DNA of 59,075 nucleotides, filler included. It is 6 parts of 6 records of this genome, joined end to end, with 100 filler letters (N's around TTAATTAATTAA, not from the genome) between each part and the next. Parts side by side here need not be neighbours in the genome. Positions count along the whole stretch, not along the records: positions 20,172 to 25,704 come from SRR31156797_17259; 5 more parts are not named here. The stretch is one strand, 5' to 3'. Of the stretch, positions 14,406 through 42,255 are shown in pieces. Position numbers and translations under genes: made by a program. The first letter of the stretch is position 1; each line of letters begins with the position of its first letter. Under the pieces are notes generated by a model, which worked only from the letters and a program-made list of their open reading frames with translations, did no database searches and had not been told where the DNA came from.

Positions 14406-14505
14406 NNNNNNNNNNNNNNNNNNNNNNNNNNNNNNNNNNNNNNNNNNNNTTAATTAATTAANNNNNNNNNNNNNNNNNNNNNNNNNNNNNNNNNNNNNNN
14501 NNNNN
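14406..14505. other. Artificial contig spacer
   Basis: N-run with central TTAATTAATTAA (stops in all six frames); abrupt GC-rich to AT-rich switch across it. Confidence 0.99.
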
Positions 14506-14575
14506 CGATGAAGATTTTGTTTTGCCCACGCGCTTCTGCCCTTCGAGACAGTTTGGGAAGCCCACTCACATTGCA

Positions 14576-14626
14576 CACATTTGCAATTCACACAAGCAGC
14601 CCCAGAAACCAAAATTTGCAAAAGAG
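14576..14626 (+). repeat. Hairpin-forming direct repeat, copy 1
   Basis: CACATTTGCAATTCACACAAGC...CCAAAATTTGCAAAAGAG; near-identical blocks recur at 19898-19947. Confidence 0.75.
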
Positions 14627-14842
14627 TGCAATTTCCCAACCTAAATATCAATTATAATCATTTCATATCAAACCTTTAAACTTAGCTAATTAAACAATTT
14701 TAAAATCCTTTTTAATACGAACCTACTGCACTTAACCTGCTCACAAAATGCGACTTAGCGAAATTTATATAAAAAAAAAAAAAACGGAATGAAACAAAAA
14801 ATATTTATATAGATTTTTAGCAAAGTGAAGGGATTAATTATT

Positions 14843-14850
14843 TATATTTG
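14843..14850 (+). promoter_or_regulatory. Bacteroidota -7 promoter element (TAnnTTTG)
   Basis: TATATTTG upstream of the three-gene operon; only a weak -33 match (TTAG at 14817-14820). Confidence 0.45.
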
Positions 14851-15292
14851 TTCTACCATTAAAAATATCGCAATTAATTTTAACCCGAATTATTGACGCT
14901 TGAAAACAGAAGAATATGTTACAACTCCAAATTAACCTTGAGAAACAAATCTCTAAAGAAAAAATACTGAAGTCCTTGCTTACATTCTATTCCCAATTAA
15001 TGGTATATGAAGTATTCATTGAGAATACCAAACAAATCTGCTGTAGAACTTTATAAGGAAAAGTTATTTAATCATTTTTTCCATAACCTCAAATCATGAA
15101 ATCAAAATTGAAAAATCAAAAAACCAATTTTCATTTATTTCTTAAATCAATAAGGATTTAAAACAAGCAAACATTAATATAATTCAAGGGTAAAAAGCAA
15201 CCCAGCCCTTTAAAAGAACCAGGTTGCACAAATTGTTTTAATAACCGGAATGGGGAGCAGTAACTCTCCATTCCACAAAACTTTACAAAGTA

Positions 15293-16351
15293 ATGAAAAA
15301 TTTTATTGTATTTGCTATGGTAATAGCAGGATTAACCATTTTAAATGGTTGCCAAAAAGATGAACTTGTAGTTAGCCATCTGACTGATGATGTGCTTTCG
15401 CAAGAAGCTTTTAAGCCAGATGTTTACGTAGAAAATGATTATCTGGTATTCAAAGACTACCAAACTTATTCTTCTATTTCAGATGAACTTGATTTAATGG
15501 ACGATGAACAAATCGACAACTGGGAAAGAAAACTTGGTTTTCATTCGGCGAGGTCGTTCATGAATGAGGTTTATAAAAAACTTGACGAGGATATTTCCAT
15601 AGAAAACTATGAGAAAGTAAAAGAGGAATATCAGGGAAGGTTAATTTTTACCGAAGATATGGACTTATTACTTCCATTTTATGCCACTGCATGGGAGAAA
15701 GTATTAAATCCAAAGGGAGAAATGAAAATTGGGCATACTATTTATAAGTTTTATCAAGACCGGGAAGTTATGATAATGGATGGTTCAGATAGTGATTTGG
15801 ACAATCTTTCCAAAATTATATCCGACACAAGTAAAGTCAAAGTATTTTATCCAAACAAAAACAATTTACTAAAATCAGTTCAGTGGGGAACTTTATTGAG
15901 TGGAACTGAATGGAATGGAAGTAAAATGAGGTTAGACTGGAATTATCAACTTATAAGTTTATATTATTATGGCACCGGATATGGTTCCATTTACTATACA
16001 GAAAAAGGTTTTGAACTCAAACATTGGATGCGCCAAAAAAGAAAAAAATTATGGTGGTCATATAACAAAACACAGTACTATATGACAAATATGAATTTAC
16101 ATATTGAATTTTACAGGGATTATAGCAACTTATTGGGTTGGTCAAACAAGTTTGTTTATAATCAAACAATTCAAGACTATACATCACCAGAAACAACACA
16201 AGGTTGCACTTATCGATTTTTAAGATATTATGATGTTGTTTTAGGTTATTGCCCACAAGTAAATCCTGAAATATATGATAATACATTTACATTTTGGTCA
16301 AGAGGATTAGATTACGCAAACAGAAAAACAATAAATTATACCAATCAATAA
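15293..16351 (+). CDS. Bacteroidota lipoprotein, DUF4848-like N-terminal domain
   Basis: Signal II with lipobox ILNGC followed by QKDE (surface-export-like signal); VENDYLVFKD...IDNWERKLGFHS...VLNPKGEMKIG pattern recalled from DUF4848; Tyr/Trp-rich C-terminal half. Confidence 0.7.
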   Translation: MKNFIVFAMVIAGLTILNGCQKDELVVSHLTDDVLSQEAFKPDVYVENDYLVFKDYQTYSSISDELDLMDDEQIDNWERKLGFHSARSFMNEVYKKLDEDISIENYEKVKEEYQGRLIFTEDMDLLLPFYATAWEKVLNPKGEMKIGHTIYKFYQDREVMIMDGSDSDLDNLSKIISDTSKVKVFYPNKNNLLKSVQWGTLLSGTEWNGSKMRLDWNYQLISLYYYGTGYGSIYYTEKGFELKHWMRQKRKKLWWSYNKTQYYMTNMNLHIEFYRDYSNLLGWSNKFVYNQTIQDYTSPETTQGCTYRFLRYYDVVLGYCPQVNPEIYDNTFTFWSRGLDYANRKTINYTNQ

Positions 16352-16355
16352 CTTA

Positions 16356-16392
16356 AAATTCCGAGTTGGACATAACATCCGGCCCGGAATTT
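16356..16392 (+). terminator. Intercistronic stem-loop (partial terminator or mRNA stabiliser)
   Basis: AAATTCCGAGTTGGA-cataaca-TCCGGCCCGGAATTT followed by T-rich sequence, right after the first gene's stop. Confidence 0.6.
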
Positions 16393-16411
16393 AGTTTTAT
16401 TTAAAAAACTG

Positions 16412-17311
16412 ATGTTGAAAATAAAAGCTATTTTTGTATTATCTATTATATTAACTTCATGTATCAGTGAAGTTAATATTCAATTACCTCAGGATGAACT
16501 TGAAATCACACTAAACTGTGTTTTGCGACCAAATAGTGATACCGTTATAGCCCTCCTATCTTATTCAAAACCATTGTTATCTACGGTGAGTTTTGAAGAT
16601 GTAAAGAATGCAAAAGTAAGGTTATTCGAGGATGGTAAAATATTAGGAGAGTTTGTCAAATCAGATTCAACAGCATGGAGTATGCCATACCGAGTTATTC
16701 CAGGGAAAGAGTATAAAATTGAAGTTGCTCTCAATAATGAATCAATCTGGGGTAAAACCACTATTCCTAAGAATATTGATATTGACATTTCGGTAATGAA
16801 AGAAGTTAATTACCGTTTTGATTATCAAGTTTCTTTTATTGACAGCAAAAATGAAGAAAATTTTTACTGGATTTCGGCAAAAGGATACAGCCAGTATCAG
16901 GGAAAACCTATTTTGGAACAGGCTCCAGCACTTTACACCGACTACAGTCTTGCCGATGATTTTAACCGTTATATCGAAACATTTGCAGGGTACCAATATA
17001 TGTACGAAGATTACATTCGAATAACAGATAAAATGATATCAGGAGAATCTGTTATGTGCCAGTTTAGTCCTGCCAGTATTGATATAAATTTGGGACCACA
17101 ACAAATCTTTGTTCTTTCAATCGACTATCATTTAGATAAATATATGAAATCAAGTTTATTGATGGAGGAAAACGATTTATGGGCTGAAGAAGTCCCTATT
17201 GTTTATGCCCCATTTTCAGTTTACTCAAATATTCATAATGGAACTGGAATTGTCGGGTCGTATAATAGTTACAATAGAACTTTTTCAAAAAGTAAGCATG
17301 ATAACTATTAG
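16412..17311 (+). CDS. DUF4249-like lipoprotein (TonB-receptor partner)
   Basis: Lipobox LTSC; GKEYKIEV...GKTTIP; FIDSKNEENFY; C-terminal VYSNIHNGTGIVGS typical of DUF4249. Confidence 0.8.
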   Translation: MLKIKAIFVLSIILTSCISEVNIQLPQDELEITLNCVLRPNSDTVIALLSYSKPLLSTVSFEDVKNAKVRLFEDGKILGEFVKSDSTAWSMPYRVIPGKEYKIEVALNNESIWGKTTIPKNIDIDISVMKEVNYRFDYQVSFIDSKNEENFYWISAKGYSQYQGKPILEQAPALYTDYSLADDFNRYIETFAGYQYMYEDYIRITDKMISGESVMCQFSPASIDINLGPQQIFVLSIDYHLDKYMKSSLLMEENDLWAEEVPIVYAPFSVYSNIHNGTGIVGSYNSYNRTFSKSKHDNY

Positions 17312-19646
17312 ATATAGATTCATTTTAATTTTACTGATAAGCTTTTTGTATACTAGCTATACTTTTTCGCAAGAAAAAGCAACAATAAGTGGTTATGTTA
17401 CAGACAAAGCCACTGGCGAACTGTTAATGGGTGCAACAGTATTTATACCTAAATTAAATATTGGAACGACTTGCAATAATTACGGATTTTATAGCCTAAC
17501 AATTCCTAAGGGCGAAGTTAAAGTAATAATTCGTTTTGTCGGATTCGATGTACTTCAGATTCCTCTCAGTCTGTTAAACGATTCTATTTTAAATATCCAG
17601 TTAGAGGCAAATAATATAATTGATGAAGTACAAGTAAAAGCAACATCTATGGAGAGTTTCTTGATGTCTCCAACTATGAGCATGCACCGTTTAAATGCAA
17701 AAGAGGTCGAAAAAATCCCAGTGGTACTTGGTGAGCCTGATTTATTAAAAGCAATACAACTTTTACCTGGCGTATCGTTTGCGAATGAGGGAGCCACGGG
17801 TTTTAGTGTTCGAGGGGGGAATCCTGACCAGACGCTAATTTTGCTCGATGGAGTGCCAGTTTATAATGTAAACCATTTGTGGGGATTTATGTCGGCATTT
17901 AACAACGATGCCATAAACGAGTTAAGACTGTACAAAGGAGGTTTACCTTCACGTTTTGGAGGTAGGTTAAGCTCGGTGCTTGATATAAGCATGAAGGAAG
18001 GAAATTTAAAAAAACAGTCGGGGACTTTTTCAATCAGTCCTATTGCCGGACGTTTCACCCTTGAAGGACCAATTGTTAGAAACAAAGCCTCATTTATGGT
18101 TTCTGCACGAAAAACATGGGCAGATGCTTTGTTGCTGGGAGTTCAGAAATTGCAAGGAGAAGATGCACAAGTATTAACCTATGGATTTTGGGACATTAAC
18201 GCAAAAACGAACTGGATTTTAAATCGTAATAATAGGGTGTACATTAGTTTTTACACCGGACGAGATGCTTATGTAATGGAAGATGGGGGAGGTAATAATA
18301 GCGACTATGCAAAATTCAGTTACAATTGGCAAAATGTGACGGGTGTCCTACGCTGGAATCATATCTTTACTCCTGTATTATTTGCCAACTTCTCTTTATA
18401 TAATAGCCGATTCAGACAGGAATACTATAATAAATTCGATAAAAAAGGAAATGAGTATTATCGGGGTTATAATAATTTAAATGATATATCATTCAAAGCT
18501 GATTTCGACTGGCTCCCTAAGGCTAATACTGAATTCAAGTTCGGCTATAATATTTCTTTACAGGCATTTAGCCCTGAAATAATTACATTTAAATCAGATA
18601 CAACCTCAATTGAACTTAATAAAGATGTTTTTACACGCAATTTTATTTCAGAGATTTATACCGAGGGAAATATAGACCTTTCTCAAAAGCTTAAAGGGAA
18701 TTTTGGATTGCGTCTTGGGAATATGTCTACAAGTGATAAAAACTATTTTAGTCTCAGGCCACGAGTCTCGCTTCGTTACCTTTTTTCTGAAAATTTGTCA
18801 GGAAAGATATCCTATTCGCGCATGAAACAGTTTCTGCATCAATTACAAAACACAACTTTGGGTATCCCTACTGAATTATGGGTTTCTTCTACCAACAAGA
18901 TAAAACCTGGTACGTCAAACCTTTTCTCATCAGGTTTATTTTTTAAACCTATTGATGGTTATAATTTCTCTGCTGAAATATATTATTCGCAATTAAAAGA
19001 TGTATTACGGTACAAAGAAGGAACACTAGCATTAAAAGAACAAGGTGACAGCTGGGAAGATTTCGTTGCTTCAGGCAAAGGAAAAACTTACGGATTGGAA
19101 TTACAAGTTAAAAAAACGACAGGAACTTTAACCGGGTGGGTTGCCTACACTCTTTCTAAAAGTATACGACAATACGATGAAATAAACTTTGGTAAACCTT
19201 TCCCATATGCATACGACAGAAGGCACCAATTGAATGTTAATGCCAATTATATTCTTGGTGAAAAAAATAAAAACGGTAAAAAAATAAATAAAGACTTTTC
19301 TGCAAACTTTAATTTTGCAACTGGAAAACATATTACTCTTGCAGTGCAAGAGTATCAGGGTTTACCATTGCCAATGATGGAAGGTCTAATTGAAAGGAAC
19401 AACTGGTTTGAAAGAAGGAGCTTACTCAATTCAGTAAACAATTTCCAAATGCCTGCATTCCACAATTTAAACATCTCGTACAGAATTGAGCACCAAAGCA
19501 TTGACAAGACAGTAATTTGGAATTTTACAGTTTACAATACTTACAACCGGCTAAATCCATGGTACTATTACAAAAAAGATGACAAATTAAAGCAGATAAC
19601 TTTATTCCCAATAATTCCTTCTGTTTCATTTACTTACAAATGGTAG
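17298..19646 (+). CDS. TonB-dependent receptor with N-terminal carboxypeptidase-regulatory-like domain
   Basis: ISGYVTDKATGELLMGATV, plug LGEPDLLKAIQLLPGV...VRGGNPDQTLILLDGVPVYN...RFGGRLSSVLDI, barrel ending PSVSFTYKW; ATG 17298 overlaps the upstream gene. Confidence 0.93.
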   Translation: MITIRYRFILILLISFLYTSYTFSQEKATISGYVTDKATGELLMGATVFIPKLNIGTTCNNYGFYSLTIPKGEVKVIIRFVGFDVLQIPLSLLNDSILNIQLEANNIIDEVQVKATSMESFLMSPTMSMHRLNAKEVEKIPVVLGEPDLLKAIQLLPGVSFANEGATGFSVRGGNPDQTLILLDGVPVYNVNHLWGFMSAFNNDAINELRLYKGGLPSRFGGRLSSVLDISMKEGNLKKQSGTFSISPIAGRFTLEGPIVRNKASFMVSARKTWADALLLGVQKLQGEDAQVLTYGFWDINAKTNWILNRNNRVYISFYTGRDAYVMEDGGGNNSDYAKFSYNWQNVTGVLRWNHIFTPVLFANFSLYNSRFRQEYYNKFDKKGNEYYRGYNNLNDISFKADFDWLPKANTEFKFGYNISLQAFSPEIITFKSDTTSIELNKDVFTRNFISEIYTEGNIDLSQKLKGNFGLRLGNMSTSDKNYFSLRPRVSLRYLFSENLSGKISYSRMKQFLHQLQNTTLGIPTELWVSSTNKIKPGTSNLFSSGLFFKPIDGYNFSAEIYYSQLKDVLRYKEGTLALKEQGDSWEDFVASGKGKTYGLELQVKKTTGTLTGWVAYTLSKSIRQYDEINFGKPFPYAYDRRHQLNVNANYILGEKNKNGKKINKDFSANFNFATGKHITLAVQEYQGLPLPMMEGLIERNNWFERRSLLNSVNNFQMPAFHNLNISYRIEHQSIDKTVIWNFTVYNTYNRLNPWYYYKKDDKLKQITLFPIIPSVSFTYKW

Positions 19647-19897
19647 AAATGAATAATTCATTTCTAATTACATATGGACTAAAACGAACATAATATTTTG
19701 CCAAAAGCAATTTCAAGTAACAAAATTTGAGTGAAAACTTGGAATATATTTGGGTTTTTGTGAATACCGTGTGTCGAAAAAGGAAAATATCTGTGTACTT
19801 TTGATACCATTAAAAGTAAAAAGGCATCAACCAGAACTTATATAAAAATACTAAATGACTTGTCCATATATAAAATTAGCTACCCACAACCGCCAAG

Positions 19898-19947
19898 CAC
19901 ATTTGCAATTCGCACAAGCCAACACACAACCAAAAATTACAAAAGAG
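19898..19947 (+). repeat. Hairpin-forming direct repeat, copy 2
   Basis: CACATTTGCAATTCGCACAAGC...CCAAAAATTACAAAAGAG, matching 14576-14626. Confidence 0.75.
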
Positions 19948-20071
19948 CTTATCTGTTTTCCATCGCTTTTTTTTACGACCCAGAAAACAAAATCAGGTTG
20001 GTGGTAAATATGGTAGTGAAGCACTTTTATGAAAGGAAATTAAAACCCAGCAGGTAACACGTGTTAAATTT

Positions 20072-20171
20072 NNNNNNNNNNNNNNNNNNNNNNNNNNNNN
20101 NNNNNNNNNNNNNNNTTAATTAATTAANNNNNNNNNNNNNNNNNNNNNNNNNNNNNNNNNNNNNNNNNNNN
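20072..20171. other. Artificial contig spacer
   Basis: N-run with TTAATTAATTAA. Confidence 0.99.
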
Positions 20172-20172
20172 A

Positions 20173-21051
20173 CTGTTCGATGTCCCGGCGTCCATGCTTC
20201 CGGAGGTCAAGAGTTGCAGCGAGGTGTACGGCGAGACGGGGACTGCATTCCTCTCGGCGAAGATTCCCATCGCCGGTATCGCGGGCGATCAGCAGGCCGC
20301 CGCGTTCGGGCAGATGTGCACCGAAGAGGGGATGATCAAGAACACCTACGGCACCGGCTGCTTCATCGTGATGAACACCGGAGACAAACCCAAGCATTCC
20401 ACGAACAATCTGCTCACCACCGTTGCCTGGAAGCTGGATGGCAAAGTCACTTACGCGCTGGAGGGGAGCATCTTCATCGCGGGCGCTGTCGTGCAATGGC
20501 TGCGGGACGGCCTAGGCTGCATCACTACGTCCGAACAGGTCGAGACACTCGCCGGTTCGGTCGAGGACAATGGCGGCGTCTATATGGTCCCGGCGTTTGC
20601 CGGCCTCGGGGCGCCGCACTGGGATCAATACGCCCGTGGCGCTATTTTCGGTATCACGCGGGGCACGACCGATGGCCACATTGCCCGGGCCTGCCTCGAA
20701 TCGATCGCGTTCCAGACGAAAGATGTGCTGGACGCCATGGCTGACGACGCAGGCATTCCGATCACGGAACTGCGCGTCGATGGCGGCGCCTCGATCAACG
20801 ACGCACTGATGGAGTTCCAGGCGGGTCTGACCGGTGTCACCGTCATTCGGCCCGAGACGCTGGAGACCACGGCCATGGGAGCGGCCTTCTTTGCCGGCCT
20901 GGCGGTCGGATACTGGAAAGACCTGGACGAGATCAAACAGATCTGGAAGCAGGGGGCCCAGTTCGAATCGCACATGGCCCCCGAGACGCGGGCGGAACTG
21001 CTGAAGAACTGGCACAAAGCGGTCGACCGCGTGCGCGACTGGGATCGGTAA
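20173..21051 (+). CDS. glpK: Glycerol kinase, 5'-truncated
   Basis: [65 protein letters not shown]. Confidence 0.95.
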
Positions 21052-21117
21052 TACGAATGTCACTGGACCGACGGTGCGACGGGCGCCGTCCATCACGACT
21101 CAGTGGGAGAAATACTC

Positions 21118-21870
21118 ATGAGCGAACTTACGGCCGAATTTGGGGCGGAATTCATCGGGACCATGATCCTGGTCCTCCTGGGCGACGGCGTCGTGGCGAA
21201 CGTCTGTCTCAAAGGGACGAAGGGCAACAACGCCGGGTGGATTGTGATCACGATGGGTTGGGGGCTGGCCGTCTTCACCGCGGTGTCCGTCACGGGCGAG
21301 GTCAGCGGGGCGCACATCAATCCCGCCGTGACGGTCGGTCTGGCGGCCGCCAGCGTGTTCGCCTGGGCCAAGGTCCCGGTCTTTCTGGCCGCGCAATTCC
21401 TGGGCGGTGCGGCCGGCGCCTTTCTAGTCTGGTTGTTCTACCGGGACCACTATGAAATGACGGAGGACAAGGATGTTATCCTGGGCACCTTCGCAACCGG
21501 GCCGACGGTGCGCAAGCCCCTGAGCAACGTCTTTTCCGAAGTCGTTGGTACCTTCGTTCTGATCATGGCCGTGCTGTACATCGCCGTTCCGAAGTTCACC
21601 TCCGACGGTGAGGAGGTCAAGATGGGGATGGGTGCGCTCGGGGCCATCCCGGTCGCGTTCGTGGTGATGGGTATTGGCATGTCACTCGGTGGCACGACTG
21701 GCTATGCCATCAATCCCGCCCGCGATCTGGGTCCGCGCCTGGTGCACCACTTCGTGCCCATCACGCATAAAGGCCCCAGCGACTGGGGTTACAGTTGGAT
21801 CCCGGTAGTCGGGCCGATCCTCGGCGCTTTGCTGGCGGCACTGGCTTATTTATTGGGCCCGGTCACCTAG
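21118..21870 (+). CDS. glpF: Aquaglyceroporin (MIP family)
   Basis: SGAHINPAVT and GYAINPARDLGPR (two NPA motifs, NPARD glyceroporin signature); follows glpK. Confidence 0.95.
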   Translation: MSELTAEFGAEFIGTMILVLLGDGVVANVCLKGTKGNNAGWIVITMGWGLAVFTAVSVTGEVSGAHINPAVTVGLAAASVFAWAKVPVFLAAQFLGGAAGAFLVWLFYRDHYEMTEDKDVILGTFATGPTVRKPLSNVFSEVVGTFVLIMAVLYIAVPKFTSDGEEVKMGMGALGAIPVAFVVMGIGMSLGGTTGYAINPARDLGPRLVHHFVPITHKGPSDWGYSWIPVVGPILGALLAALAYLLGPVT

Positions 21871-22769
21871 CGCGCCTCGCGAACGTAGCGCGTGATGTGC
21901 TCCACGGTATCGATCCAGATCCCGTTGTTGGGATCGCGGGCATACTCGCAGATGGCTCTGAGCGTATCGATGCGCGTGGTCTGGCGGCCACCATCACCAA
22001 TCTCATGGCCGGCGAAGACCAGCCAGGTCCCGTTTTCGACCGCCGTGTCGATGAGTTTCCTGGCTTGCTCGAAGTCGAGCCCGTCCAGTTCCATGCCGAG
22101 CAGTTGAGCCGGGTCGCAAAAGGCCGGATCGTTGGCGGCTTCATCCATCCATCCGCGTCCGGCCGAAAACATCGTCGCCACCAACGGAACGTAGCTCTTC
22201 AGTTGCCGGCCGCGGCCGACGAACTTCTGCCCGCAGGGATAGGCAAACGTGGCCGGTTGCACGCCCAGCGCCGCTTCGATATGGGCATTGGCCGCTTCCA
22301 GTTCCTGCTCCATCTGCTTCAGCGTGTAGTCCTCCAGCGCTTTCTCCCGGGCGAACGCGAAGTTGCCCGTGCACGGATGGCGCAAGGAATGGTTGCCGAT
22401 CTCGTGACCATTGGCGAGTGCCTGCTTCCAGGCGGACAGTCGCTCGCCGAGCGGTCGGGGTGAGACGTAGAACGTGGCCTTGACGCCGTAGCTGTCGAGC
22501 AGGGGGACGCCCACGTCGGCCTGGCTGAGCCGCGCATCGTCGAACGTCAGGCTCACCGCTGCCCGCTTGCCCTCAGGCCACACGAACGTGCCGGTCCGCT
22601 CGACCGTCACGGCATAAGGATCGGCCCCCGTCCCTTCAGGTTTCGCGGCCTCTCGCCCACAGCCGCACAAGCCGGCGCCGACAGTCCCCAGCAACAAACC
22701 CGACCAGAGTACGCCACGAACCACCGCCGGCCGCATGATGCGACAGCGCCTACTGTCGTTTTGGTCCAT
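21867..22769 (-). CDS. Exported/lipoprotein polysaccharide deacetylase (CE4/NodB-like)
   Basis: SLTFDD, ATFYV, GHEIGNHSLRHP, FAYPCG, VFAGHE; N-terminal hydrophobic stretch ending LCGC. Start uncertain. Confidence 0.88.
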   Translation of the reverse strand: MDQNDSRRCRIMRPAVVRGVLWSGLLLGTVGAGLCGCGREAAKPEGTGADPYAVTVERTGTFVWPEGKRAAVSLTFDDARLSQADVGVPLLDSYGVKATFYVSPRPLGERLSAWKQALANGHEIGNHSLRHPCTGNFAFAREKALEDYTLKQMEQELEAANAHIEAALGVQPATFAYPCGQKFVGRGRQLKSYVPLVATMFSAGRGWMDEAANDPAFCDPAQLLGMELDGLDFEQARKLIDTAVENGTWLVFAGHEIGDGGRQTTRIDTLRAICEYARDPNNGIWIDTVEHITRYVREAR

Positions 22770-22989
22770 CTTTCGCCTCACCGCAATTCCATCTGCCTGG
22801 GCAAAGCACACCGTATCAGCGACGACGCGACCGGTGCGGCCACCGTCATTGTAGCGAGCACCCCGCGTGGGGTGCAAGATGCGAGTCGGTCCGCGGAGTT
22901 TTGAATCCCCGCTGCAATATGTATAATTTTATGGGAAGGGGTATCGAAGGACACTCGGCTATCGACTGGGTCAAGCAAGGTGGGGACAA

Positions 22990-23451
22990 ATGAGAGCGAG
23001 AGAGGGCTTCACACTCGTCGAAATCCTGATTGTGGTGACGATTCTCGGCATCCTGGCGGCCATCGTGGTGCCCCAGTTCAGTTCGGCTGCCAAAGATGCG
23101 CAGGTCTCGTCGCTACGCACCAACTTACAGGCATTCCGCAAGCAAATCGAGCTGTACAAATACCATCATGACGACAGCATGCCCGCCATTGCGGGCGAGA
23201 GCAGCGCCGACTTCACGCGCCGGATGACCGAGGAAACGGATATCGATGGTGACGTCGGCACCGACTTCGGTCCCTATCTGGAGCGGATTCCCATCAATCC
23301 CTTCAACCGGCTCAACACCGTCCGCGTGGGAGACGCTGCGGCCGGCGCCAACACGCACGGCTGGCGCTTCGATCCGGCCACCGGGGTGATCCAGTCCGAC
23401 GACAACTACGACGGCGACGGCGACAGCACCCCCGATCACATCGGGCTCTAG
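22990..23451 (+). CDS. Type IV pilin / T2SS GspG-like prepilin
   Basis: Class III signal G|FTLVEILIVVTILGILAAIVVPQF; GPYLERIPINPF; C-terminal DGDGD acidic loop. Confidence 0.9.
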   Translation: MRAREGFTLVEILIVVTILGILAAIVVPQFSSAAKDAQVSSLRTNLQAFRKQIELYKYHHDDSMPAIAGESSADFTRRMTEETDIDGDVGTDFGPYLERIPINPFNRLNTVRVGDAAAGANTHGWRFDPATGVIQSDDNYDGDGDSTPDHIGL

Positions 23452-23467
23452 GTCGAGCGCGTTCGGG

Positions 23468-25704
23468 TCAATCGAGGTTCATCAACTTTCGGCAGATCGA
23501 CTTCACCACCGGATTGAGGTCGGGCTCGCTGAATCCGTCGAGCGGCTGACCGATATCGTGCGCCGCCTGGATGTCCTTCAGGGGCGTCTGGTCCCAGAAG
23601 CACTCGCTCAAGAGGGCGATCACCATTCGGGCCCGGCCCTCTTCGCGCGCGCGAAGCAGGTAGGGCAGTTCGTGCTGCATGATGAAGTCGGAGGCCAGGA
23701 AGTGGGGGCTCACCAGCAGCAAACCTGACCGTGCCATATGAAGGGCCCGATCGATCTCCTGTTGCCAATTCTGGCTGGCGCTGATGTCCTGGTCCGACCA
23801 GGTCGTGATGCGTCCGTCCCGTACCAGGGGCTTGAGCATGATGTTGAAACGCTCCAGCCACGGCGCGTCGGCGTGGGCATAACTGATGAAGACGTCCAGG
23901 CCAGCCGGATGGCGAAGGCCTTGCAGTAGATCGTTGACGCTTATTACAATCAGATCGTCGCCTACCTGGACATGATCTACTTGGAGGCCCCGCTCCTCGA
24001 ACTTCAGGAGTCGACTGTAGGGAACCAGCACCCCCGGGTGCTCGGGCAGCGGGATTTTCTCCACGACTGCCAGACGCGGAATGGTGGCGTGAATGGCATC
24101 GAACTGATCGCGGATCGATTGCAGGAAGCGGCGCCGGCCGGCGACCTGGCCCCGGATGCAGATGTCGATCTGCGCATCTTCGAAGTCCGCCCAGACGCGG
24201 GCCTGGGCGTCGCCGTCGAGGGATTCCAGGACGACGCCTTTGCGCCAGTAGATCTCGTCGCTGATGCGCTGGTGCATCCGCACGATGAAGCGCGACATGA
24301 CGCTGGCCGGTAGCATCTCATAGTCGTAGCGGAAACCCAAACTGTCGTCCCAATCGTCGTCAATGTTGTCGGGTTGCTCCAGGGGGAGCAGGCCCGGTAC
24401 GAGGAACTTCAAGTTGGCCTGGCCCTCGAAGTCGAAGAGCAATTCGAACCGGCGCATCATCTCGATCAGAAACATCTGGCGGTCGCCGGGATAGGCGAAT
24501 CGTTTGTCGGCCACGGCCTTCAGAAGCGCGTCCAATTCCCCGAACGTCAGGACGCCGTGGGCCGCTGACAAGTGCTCGCTGGTGAGGATGCGATAGATGG
24601 CGGTCGTCACCCAGAGCGGATTGAGGATATTCAGATCGCGGAGGATGGGATGGTCGTGGAAGTGTAGGACGATGCCCAGATCGTGGAGAAAGCTGATCAG
24701 TTGCCTCTGTTCCTTCTCCTCGACGATACCCTTGCCCTCGCACAGTTCCACGTAGGTTGTGTAGAGCAGGCAGCTCTCGGTACTCTCCTCCAGTTCCTGC
24801 TTGACGGCGAACCACGTCTCGGGAAAGAGCGTATCGACGTGCTCCAGGTGGGCGATTTCCTGCTCGATCGCGCCGGATACTTCGTCGACGCCTCTGTCCT
24901 GGGCGCAGGAAACTTCTTTGACGTAGCAGCGGATCTGGGGATACTTGGCCTGGAGGCCTTTCCAGTCGAGCTGCATGGTTTGCTGATCGCACTTATTGCA
25001 GACGACGATCACGGGCGAATCCTCACCGAAGCTGTGGATCAGCTTCAGCCAGTATTCGATGCGGCTCTGCCGCTCATTCTGGCGCGAGTCGAGCACCAGC
25101 AGGTAGAGACTGCGCTTGGTGAGGAAGAACTGGTGTGTCGCGTGCATGATCTCCTGGCCGCCAAAGTCCCAGACGTTCAGCCGCACGGTGCGGTTCTCCA
25201 GCGCCAGGTCCCAACGATGGGTCTTGATACCGTGCGTCTGATCTTCATTGGGGTCGAAGTTCTGTCCTCGCAGCCGCTTGATCAGCGACGTTTTGCCCAC
25301 CTCCGCTTCGCCCACCACCAGCACCTTGGCCTCGTTCAACGGCCGCACGGGCTGAGTTCGCGAACGAAACCAGTAGTCGAGAATCTCCTGCGGTGAGTCT
25401 CGCTTGGCGACGATTTCCGGCGGCAACCCGAGCCGACAGTTGGAGGCACTGAGGAATGAAAGCTGCTTGAGGTTTTCCAGGGGCGACAGATCGCTGATCG
25501 GATTATCCCTGAGATGTAGACCGGTTAACTGGGGCAGGCTGCCCAGGGCCCCCAGATCGCTGATCTGATTCTCACTGAGATATAGCGTGGTTAACTGGGG
25601 CAGGTTGGCCAGGGGTGCCAGATTACTGATCTGGTTGGCACTGAGGTTCAGTGAGGTTAGCTGGTTGAGGTTTTCCAGGGGCGCCAGATCGCTGATCTGA
25701 TTGG
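23468..25704 (-). CDS. Roco-family protein: LRR - Roc GTPase - COR - TIR, 5'-truncated inside the LRR array
   Basis: Frame open from the contig edge through 22-aa LRRs (NQISDLAPLENLNQLTSLNLSA etc.); Roc motifs GEAEVGKTS, THGI, WDFGGQ, NKCD; COR LHDLGIVLHF...ILNPLWVT...RFIVRMH; TIR DVFISYAHAD...WSDQDI...LLLVSPHFLASDFIMQHEL. Confidence 0.92.
25445..25704 (-). repeat. 66-bp tandem repeats encoding 22-aa internalin/SDS22-like LRRs (at least 4 units)
   Basis: CAGATCGCTGATC-like block at 25487, 25553, 25619, 25685 (period 66); exact 19-mer at 25467 and 25665; exact 16-mer at 25523 and 25589. Confidence 0.92.
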
Positions 25705-25804
25705 NNNNNNNNNNNNNNNNNNNNNNNNNNNNNNNNNNNNNNNNNNNNTTAATTAATTAANNNNNNNNNNNNNNNNNNNNNNNNNNNNNNNNNNNNNNNN
25801 NNNN
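25705..25804. other. Artificial contig spacer
   Basis: N-run with TTAATTAATTAA. Confidence 0.99.
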
Positions 25805-36509: not shown

Positions 36510-36609
36510 NNNNNNNNNNNNNNNNNNNNNNNNNNNNNNNNNNNNNNNNNNNNTTAATTAATTAANNNNNNNNNNNNNNNNNNNNNNNNNNNNNNNNNNN
36601 NNNNNNNNN
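36510..36609. other. Artificial contig spacer
   Basis: N-run with TTAATTAATTAA. Confidence 0.99.
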
Positions 36610-42155: not shown

Positions 42156-42255
42156 NNNNNNNNNNNNNNNNNNNNNNNNNNNNNNNNNNNNNNNNNNNNT
42201 TAATTAATTAANNNNNNNNNNNNNNNNNNNNNNNNNNNNNNNNNNNNNNNNNNNN
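42156..42255. other. Artificial contig spacer
   Basis: N-run with TTAATTAATTAA. Confidence 0.99.

Follow-up and report, generated by a model that had tools for sequence, protein, structure and literature searches.

A partial bacterial LRR-Roc-COR-TIR gene, a new member of a computationally predicted counter-invader class

Introduction

The DNA analysed here (the window) is a stretch of 59,075 nucleotides that joins six contigs end to end, and one of these contigs, 5.5 kb long (20172-25704), carries a partial gene for a Roco protein with N-terminal leucine-rich repeats (LRRs), a Roc GTPase, a COR module and a C-terminal TIR domain. With this gene, a class that has already been published and predicted by computation gains a new, partial member. 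We think it rather probable that its product, like the predicted 'AP-GTPase counter-invader' class as a whole, unites sensor, switch and effector in one self-contained protein, in which a ligand of the LRRs would act through Roc-COR on NAD+ cleavage by the TIR domain.

The available text of Kaur, Iyer, Burroughs and Aravind (eLife 2021) describes prokaryotic proteins that combine an 'AP-GTPase' (equivalent to Roc) and COR with fast-evolving LRRs at the N-terminus and, at the C-terminus, any of at least 24 different domains including TIR, and predicts that they are counter-invader systems. The supplement of that paper lists the architecture found here, for example in Npun_F6039 and Halhy_6078. 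In the accessible part of a 2019 Roco review (PMC6337361) all prokaryotic Roco proteins so far are simple LRR-RocCOR proteins and the term 'TIR' never occurs; likewise, the term 'Roco' never occurs in the accessible part of a 2026 review of bacterial defence systems. The portion available of a study on brown algae presents LRR-ROCO proteins as candidate immune receptors whose LRRs diversify by exon shuffling, and reports a TPR-ROCO-TIR protein in a red alga (Chondrus).

Domain organization of the gene product

The open reading frame (ORF) listed for this locus (23468-25426, minus strand, 652 amino acids, TTG start) forms the last part of a longer frame that stays open up to the contig edge, as the original prediction, made from the sequence alone, had proposed. 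Table 1 lists the gene and its parts. The fragment begins at residue 119 of its closest homologue P0002 (871 amino acids, 81% identity), and thus about 118 N-terminal residues are missing. They are encoded on no other contig of the stretch by tblastn. In the one DNA sequencing run found to contain this contig, which is probably its source, an independently built contig of 10,433 bp reaches 4.9 kb further on the glpK side yet stops at 25700, and 25671-25704 is covered only by a 34-base piece; no RNA run containing the contig is listed. At 25470-25702 the DNA coding for the LRRs consists of 3.5 tandem copies of a 66-bp unit (77% matches), which is probably why the assembly breaks there.

Table 1. 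Features of the partial Roco gene; residues are numbered along the 744-residue fragment.
Feature	Position	Strand	Remarks
Partial LRR-Roc-COR-TIR Roco gene	23468-25702	minus	744 codons + stop (23468-23470); contig edge at 25704 cuts 5' end
Four 22-residue LRRs, residues 1-90, end of a longer array	25433-25702	minus	LRR_4 x3, LRR_8; 66-bp periodicity
LRR-Roc linker, residues 91-125	25328-25432	minus	61-89% identity to homologues; corresponds to hinge of Chlorobium tepidum Roco (CtRoco)
Roc GTPase, residues 126-283	24854-25327	minus	Pfam Roc/Ras; G1-G5 motifs
COR-A, residues 294-439	24386-24823	minus	PF16095; aligns to 4wnr
COR-B, residues 454-593	23924-24343	minus	PF25497; dimerisation half of COR in CtRoco
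C-terminal TIR, residues 604-744	23471-23893	minus	TIR_2; FISY, WSD, BB-loop ISASQNW, FIMQHEL

In a Pfam scan of the fragment, LRR_4 matched three stretches of residues 1-90 and LRR_8 matched as well, followed by Roc (PF08477, residues 126-239, E 6.9e-33; the Ras model gave E 1.2e-19), COR-A (E 2.1e-38), COR-B (E 2e-29) and TIR_2 (residues 604-713, E 1.7e-16). COR is contiguous with Roc, and the TIR domain begins about 10 residues after COR-B. All four domains of the predicted LRR-Roc-COR-TIR order were therefore found, and the motifs quoted for them (GEAEVGKTS, THGI, WDFGGQ, NKCD, FISY, WSD and FIMQHEL) are all present. A Roc domain with G1-G5 and COR-A/COR-B directly C-terminal to it places the protein among the Roco proteins, and the LRR array, the central Roc plus COR and the C-terminal TIR lie on one polypeptide, whose N-terminus is incomplete here. 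It had also been predicted that a GTPase takes the place of the ATPase of signal transduction ATPases with numerous domains (STAND). Consistent with this, Roc was matched and a STAND NTPase core (NB-ARC or NACHT) had no match in the Pfam or PADLOC scans of the protein, which may work like a nucleotide-binding LRR receptor (NLR) but is not one. We concluded that the gene product is most likely a cytoplasmic single polypeptide in which a variable LRR arm, a hinge, the Roc GTPase and a COR-A/COR-B dimerisation module are followed by TIR. A two-copy complex prediction of COR-B-TIR returned 'no answer' with a score of 0.00 and is evidence neither way.

Both enzymatic domains carry intact catalytic motifs

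The G1 motif occupies residues 131-139 (25286-25312), G2 residues 156-159, G3 residues 178-183 (25154-25171) and G4 residues 236-239 (24986-24997); G5 is SCA. Conservation was examined in an alignment of 46 TIR-bearing homologues with 35-81% identity to the window protein, and G131, G136, K137, T138, T156, D179, G181, N236, D239 and S265 of Roc are invariant in all 46. In PDB sequence searches the LRR-Roc-COR part matched solved structures: CtRoco (6hlu, 8r4b) with E ~5e-148 over residues 1-574, the RocCOR of Methanosarcina barkeri Roco2 (4wnr) with E 2.4e-90, and LRRK2 with E ~1e-18. The accessible parts of the CtRoco literature (PMC5714945, PMC11052575, PMC6337361) describe a protein that is a dimer when nucleotide-free or bound to GDP and a monomer on GTP, with a large swing of the LRRs about the LRR-Roc linker; the hinge role of this linker is given in the available text of Galicia 2024 and the dimerisation role of COR-B in that of Wauters 2019. 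By analogy, the window protein probably has in common with CtRoco both the nucleotide-dependent dimer/monomer cycle and the hinge movement of the LRRs.

In the TIR domain, FISY is found at residues 605-608, WSD at 635-637 and FIMQHEL at 673-679, and the codon of Glu678 lies at 23669-23671. Nine residues of this domain are invariant in 46/46 homologues (F605, S607, Y608, H610, D612, W635, D637, W646 and E678). The best PADLOC match is the ThsB TIR-like model (E 1.7e-20), and the SAVED_TIR model matches too; the PDB matches of residues 595-744 are 3h16 (PdTIR), 7uwg, 7uxr and 8g83. A Glu at the catalytic position had been predicted, and E678 does align with the Glu of PdTIR (3h16), 7uwg and 7uxr and with E208 of AbTir, while F673 aligns with AbTir W204. 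In the available text of the AbTir study (10.1101/2022.05.07.491051), activity is abolished by E208A and impaired by W204A and by T205A, and it needs self-association. The TIR fold and the placement of TIR relative to COR-B are predicted from sequence, and the domain is probably NAD-cleaving.

LRR arrays and C-terminal effectors vary independently of the Roc-COR core

The protein search returned 7809 matches at E<=0.001 among 8000 scored candidates. The nearest relatives have 65-81% identity, and those with names are proteins of Phycisphaerales/Planctomycetota metagenome-assembled genomes; next come many proteins of Nostoc and other cyanobacteria at ~40% identity, which are also LRR-Roc-COR-TIR. 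Further genome loci belong to Pyrinomonadaceae and other Acidobacteriota, Nitrospira, Longimicrobiaceae, Abditibacteriaceae and Verrucomicrobiota. The complete Phycisphaerales chromosome of locus L001 (CP070744.1) carries one orthologue, with 72% identity. A metagenome scan found no close full-length relative, and its 10 matches were to the TIR region only, with 35-43% identity.

The original prediction of at least four internalin-like LRRs was right in number, since four 22-residue repeats were found in residues 1-90. Their likeness to internalins holds for the repeat type; identity as an internalin does not, for the internalin models of NCBIfam, whose cut-offs lie at 1050-1600 bits, give scores of about 60. 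The LRR arm is the probable ligand-binding arm, and it is the least conserved region of the protein. Compared with P0002, the LRRs are 62% identical, and linker, Roc, COR and TIR 79-89%. Against P0003-P0011 the LRRs drop to 29-40% identity, where Roc still reaches 78-85%; in P0003-P0007 the corresponding numbers are 29-37% for the LRRs and 69-85% for Roc, COR and TIR. The repeats of P0003-P0007, which are among the closest Roc-COR relatives, are of a 23-24-residue type ('NxLxxLPxxI' kind), in contrast to the 22-residue internalin-type repeats of the window protein, and P0003-P0009, with Roc-COR 70-76% identical, have no detectable LRR similarity to it. The best LRR matches after P0002 (51-55%) belong to proteins with just 40-44% identity in Roc-COR.

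The segment ahead of the P-loop ranges from 15 to 639 amino acids (some entries are partial), against a constant P-loop-to-TIR segment of 473-505 amino acids. Three Pyrinomonadaceae loci with common prkA and DUF444 neighbours (L060, L062 and L069) are set apart by insertions and deletions of whole repeats. On this evidence the LRR array is a fast-changing, exchangeable module that evolves by gain and loss of repeats and by cassette exchange. The C-terminal effector is likewise swapped among close relatives, as judged from the alignments: P0010 and P0011 are 78-80% identical in Roc and just 18-21% in TIR, that is, they bear a different TIR. Among the matches listed, a TIR like that of the query occurs in 48 of 120 homologues, and the others have different C-terminal domains or none (precomputed Pfam).

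The distribution of the gene was followed at one site in 28 public Pyrinomonadaceae loci (two unpublished genomes were dropped). Directly after prkA stands a Roco-TIR gene in 4 loci (L104, L105, L108 and L117 of the set L104-L133), a hydrolase gene in 18, DUF444 in 3 and another gene or the contig end in 3; DUF444 follows the hydrolase where the locus extends far enough. The prkA site is thus without Roco-TIR in 21 of 28 loci, and the Roco-TIR gene behaves as an accessory insertion with presence/absence at a fixed site. One outcome that the original prediction named as speaking against it, homologues in housekeeping contexts with invariant LRRs, was found in part: the neighbours are housekeeping genes, and the LRRs are the most variable region of a gene that is accessory. 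The insertion point lies between prkA and the hydrolase/DUF444 (yeaH-type) genes, and two genomes have a methyltransferase in place of Roco-TIR at this site.

An LRR-Roc-COR gene without TIR, split over two adjoining frames, was found on an 86-kb IMG/VR contig (L091:4779-7945). An amidoligase gene adjoins it, and the 12.6-kb stretch in which it lies also has genes for a Mu-F-like head protein, a D12 adenine methyltransferase and a large terminase. L091 is a possible case of a phage-borne Roco.

Proposed mode of action

Hypervariable and exchanged LRRs, swapped effectors, presence/absence and a copy on a phage-like contig are features that fit conflict genes better than they fit core regulators. 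In the mode of action that we favour, the LRR arm would bind a foreign molecule, probably of a phage, with its concave face. The bound ligand would alter the nucleotide state of Roc and the COR-mediated monomer/dimer equilibrium, and the TIR domains would be released or brought together so that composite active sites form and NAD+ is cleaved. The loss of NAD+ would then stop the growth of the infected cell. That an LRR ligand gates Roc/COR assembly and thereby TIR activation was the mechanism put forward in the original prediction, and it is a reasonable one, its direction being unproven (compare the monomeric CtRoco on GTP).

STAND receptors are usually described as oligomerising when NTP-bound, where NTP-bound CtRoco is a monomer. 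An 'NTP-bound = assembled = on' scheme of the STAND kind does not follow from CtRoco. Since the TIR domain sits about 10 residues behind COR-B and the GTP-free form of CtRoco is a COR-B dimer, the TIR domains might be paired only in the GTP-free dimer. The polarity could then be the reverse of that of STAND receptors, with a protein that is off at normal cellular GTP and fires on ligand-sped hydrolysis or on GTP drained by infection. We offer this as a speculative and decidedly unlikely variant; if true, the protein would guard the nucleotide state as much as it senses a ligand.

Several observations weigh against an immune receptor of this kind. With respect to the switch, the monomeric state of CtRoco with GTP does not fit a simple model in which GTP turns the protein on as an oligomer. 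With respect to the effector, the BB-loop Gly is absent and replaced by Ser643 in the clade of the window protein (the column holds Gly in 37/46, Ser in 8/46 and Asn in 1/46), and the equivalent AbTir mutation in the head-to-tail interface, G174A, leaves no or very low activity according to the available text (10.1101/2022.05.07.491051). The missing 5' end means that intactness of the gene cannot be shown, and a Planctomycetota orthologue (L002, 1312-4293, 66% identical) has an in-frame stop within its LRR region, which points to a pseudogene or to an error in assembly. At third codon positions the Roco gene has a G+C content (GC3) of 0.80, the same as its neighbours on the contig (0.78-0.80), so recent transfer, judged by composition, gave no signal.

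The genomic context gives no help either. On the same contig the gene is accompanied by the 3' part of a glpK-type gene (FGGY_C), a glpF-type MIP channel gene, a polysaccharide deacetylase gene and a pseudopilin-like gene. The neighbour scan covered 126 ORFs within 5 kb at 16 TIR-bearing loci, with a PADLOC threshold of 1e-10; the full set comprised 148 ORFs at 20 loci, and four loci were dropped to limit its size. Only 6 of the 126 match any PADLOC model, all of them through generic domains (an ABC-type ATPase, an AAA ATPase, a subtilase, a sigma-54 activator, a short mad1 match and an IetA-like ATPase), and the nearest neighbours at the homologous loci are housekeeping genes by Pfam (truB, prkA, icd, purK, aroC, argB and similar). 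With housekeeping neighbours and generic matches only, there is no defence-island signal, and the enrichment proposed as a check on the prediction was not seen at these 16 loci. PADLOC has no model covering Roc-COR, and only its TIR models match the protein. Finally, no experiment on any LRR-Roc-COR-TIR member was found in the literature, in which subscription journals were thinly covered; the original prediction had likewise described the architecture, catalogued by Kaur et al. 2021, as known and its function as without experiment.

Alternative explanations

The TIR domain might instead be a signal synthase whose product, a cyclic ADP-ribose-type nucleotide, activates a separately encoded effector, as ThsB does with ThsA in Thoeris. 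The ThsB TIR-like model is the best PADLOC match, the catalytic Glu is conserved, and the contig edge cuts off the upstream neighbours of the window gene. Speaking against a synthase, no conserved partner gene was found: the three closest loci (the window, L001 and L002) have no neighbour in common, no ThsA or other effector model matched among the 126 neighbours at the 16 homologous loci, and the Thoeris layout of a ThsB-type TIR gene beside ThsA is not seen on the downstream side of the window gene. The gene appears to act stand-alone, and we regard a signal synthase as unlikely.

The protein could also be a non-immune GTP-dependent signalling protein or a regulator of programmed cell death (in stress, development or cell-cell recognition), with TIR as a regulated NAD+ enzyme or a scaffold. 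The housekeeping neighbours in the window and at the homologous loci, the lack of a defence-island signal, the position of the gene within a prkA/DUF444 stress-gene cluster in Pyrinomonadaceae, and the frequency of the family in Nostoc and other bacteria of filamentous or otherwise complex form all point in this direction. Such a role is hard to reconcile with LRR arrays that are hypervariable and exchanged, with swapped effectors, with presence at 4 of 28 fixed sites, and with a copy on a phage-like contig; a pure scaffold role would in addition leave the invariance of the Glu (46/46) unexplained. These points make a non-immune regulator improbable in our judgement.

It is very unlikely that the window copy is a decaying gene, truncated or disrupted upstream and without present function in its organism. 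Its 5' part is not in the assembly, two independent contigs end within 5 bases of each other (25704 and 25700), the BB-loop Gly is replaced, and the L002 orthologue with the in-frame stop adjoins an IS200-like transposase gene. Against decay, the frame is open over 744 codons and all its catalytic motifs are intact, GC3 matches that of host genes, a break inside a 66-bp tandem repeat is an expected assembly artefact, and the Ser of the BB-loop, found in 8/46 homologues, is a clade trait and not damage to one copy. A secreted internalin-like virulence factor was rejected, because the internalin models lie far below their cut-offs, the GTPase is of cytoplasmic type, and no signal peptide is obvious at the start of full-length relatives (read by eye).

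Comparison with known systems

For the preferred sensor-switch-effector reading, the closest published counterpart is the class of Kaur et al. 2021, which resembles the window gene in domain order, fast-evolving LRRs, exchangeable C-terminal effector and its form as one stand-alone gene. Nothing essential differs; the window copy is partial, lies on a Planctomycetota-like contig, and has Ser at the BB-loop Gly. The LRR-Roc-COR core is in common with CtRoco (6hlu, 8r4b, 3dpu) and MbRoco2 (4wnr). Unlike CtRoco, the window protein has a TIR domain after COR-B, and the PDB matches end at residue 574, before TIR. The accessible text of Wauters 2019 gives CtRoco no known biological function and treats it as a model of LRRK2.

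STAND receptors (plant TIR-NB-LRR, Avs and bNACHT) follow a similar logic and combine repeats for sensing, an NTP-driven switch and a death effector on one polypeptide. Their linked TIR activity needs induced self-association in the portions of the literature available, a likeness to the mode proposed for the window protein. The switch of the window protein differs from theirs in being a Ras-like GTPase with COR, in the order sensor-switch-TIR. Thoeris ThsB, TIR-SAVED, TIR-STING and AbTir have, as the window protein does, a TIR_2-type domain with the catalytic Glu. In contrast to these systems, no ThsA, SAVED, STING or CBASS partner domain is present in the window protein or adjoining it, and its TIR would be controlled by Roc-COR.

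Eukaryotic Roco proteins (LRRK2, DAPK1, brown-algal LRR-ROCO and Chondrus TPR-ROCO-TIR) have the Roc-COR tandem in common with the window protein, whose output is TIR and not a kinase or death domain and whose bacterial gene has a single exon. LRR diversification goes by exon shuffling in brown algae, according to the available text of that study, versus repeat gain/loss and cassette exchange in the bacterial family.

Roco research has been driven mostly by LRRK2 and Parkinson's disease. A bacterial Roco with an enzymatic output, if NAD+ loss is indeed that output, would provide a simple assay of how Roc-COR passes a signal to an effector, and would test the published prediction of GTPase-based, NLR-like bacterial immune receptors. 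The window copy itself leaves knowledge of the class unchanged; what is new here is a Planctomycetota-type member, together with the LRR cassette exchange, effector swapping, fixed-site presence/absence and possibly phage-borne relative described above.

Contigs and neighbouring genes

The six contigs of the stretch are separated by spacers of N44 + TTAATTAATTAA + N44 at 14406-14505, 20072-20171, 25705-25804, 36510-36609 and 42156-42255. Their G+C contents range from 0.33 (14506-20071) up to 0.615, and probably more than one organism is behind them, so that neighbours across spacers carry no meaning. The contig with the lowest G+C (14506-20071) encodes a CarboxypepD_reg-type outer-membrane protein.

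Next to the Roco gene, the pseudopilin-like gene (22990-23451, plus strand) has a prepilin N-methylation motif; it is convergent with the Roco gene and ends 17 bases from the Roco stop, and no terminator-like site was found between them. Synteny of the window locus was looked for through the deacetylase gene. Of 151 genomes sampled from the class of genome G001, 6 have relatives of it, at no more than 52% identity, and four deacetylase loci that were enlarged have no Roco gene and none of the other three neighbour genes of the window within ~7 kb.

The L001 orthologue is flanked on one side by genes for a pyridoxal phosphate-dependent decarboxylase, LemA and an M48 peptidase, and on the other by unknown genes and an FHA protein gene. 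The flanks of the L002 orthologue hold genes for an ABC auxiliary lipoprotein and a Gly-zipper protein, and the IS200-like (Y1) transposase gene directly follows the orthologue (L002:4293-5063).

Occurrence of the TIR subtype in other proteins

The TIR subtype of the window protein matches 23,656 cluster representatives at E<=1e-3 and 132 at E<=1e-30, and the proteins among the 150 matches listed range from 161 to 1928 amino acids. By these matches the TIR type is promiscuous. Several of its other settings were noticed in passing. The top library TIR matches P0122 (1921 amino acids), P0124 (1928 amino acids) and P0123 (629 amino acids) have 4-7 tandem TIR-like stretches. In soil metagenomes, the same TIR subtype (~40% identity) lies N-terminal to a Ser/Thr protein kinase in L081:1375-3204, L082:3380-5482 and L086:1694-3583, and one of these three proteins has a weak globin-like tail. 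Pyrinomonadaceae genomes with Roco-TIR have extra matches to its C-terminal region on other contigs (e.g., G152:C47:134799-135533), which cover residues 612-854 of 860 with 39-54% identity and may represent TIR genes that stand alone or TIR domains fused to different scaffolds.

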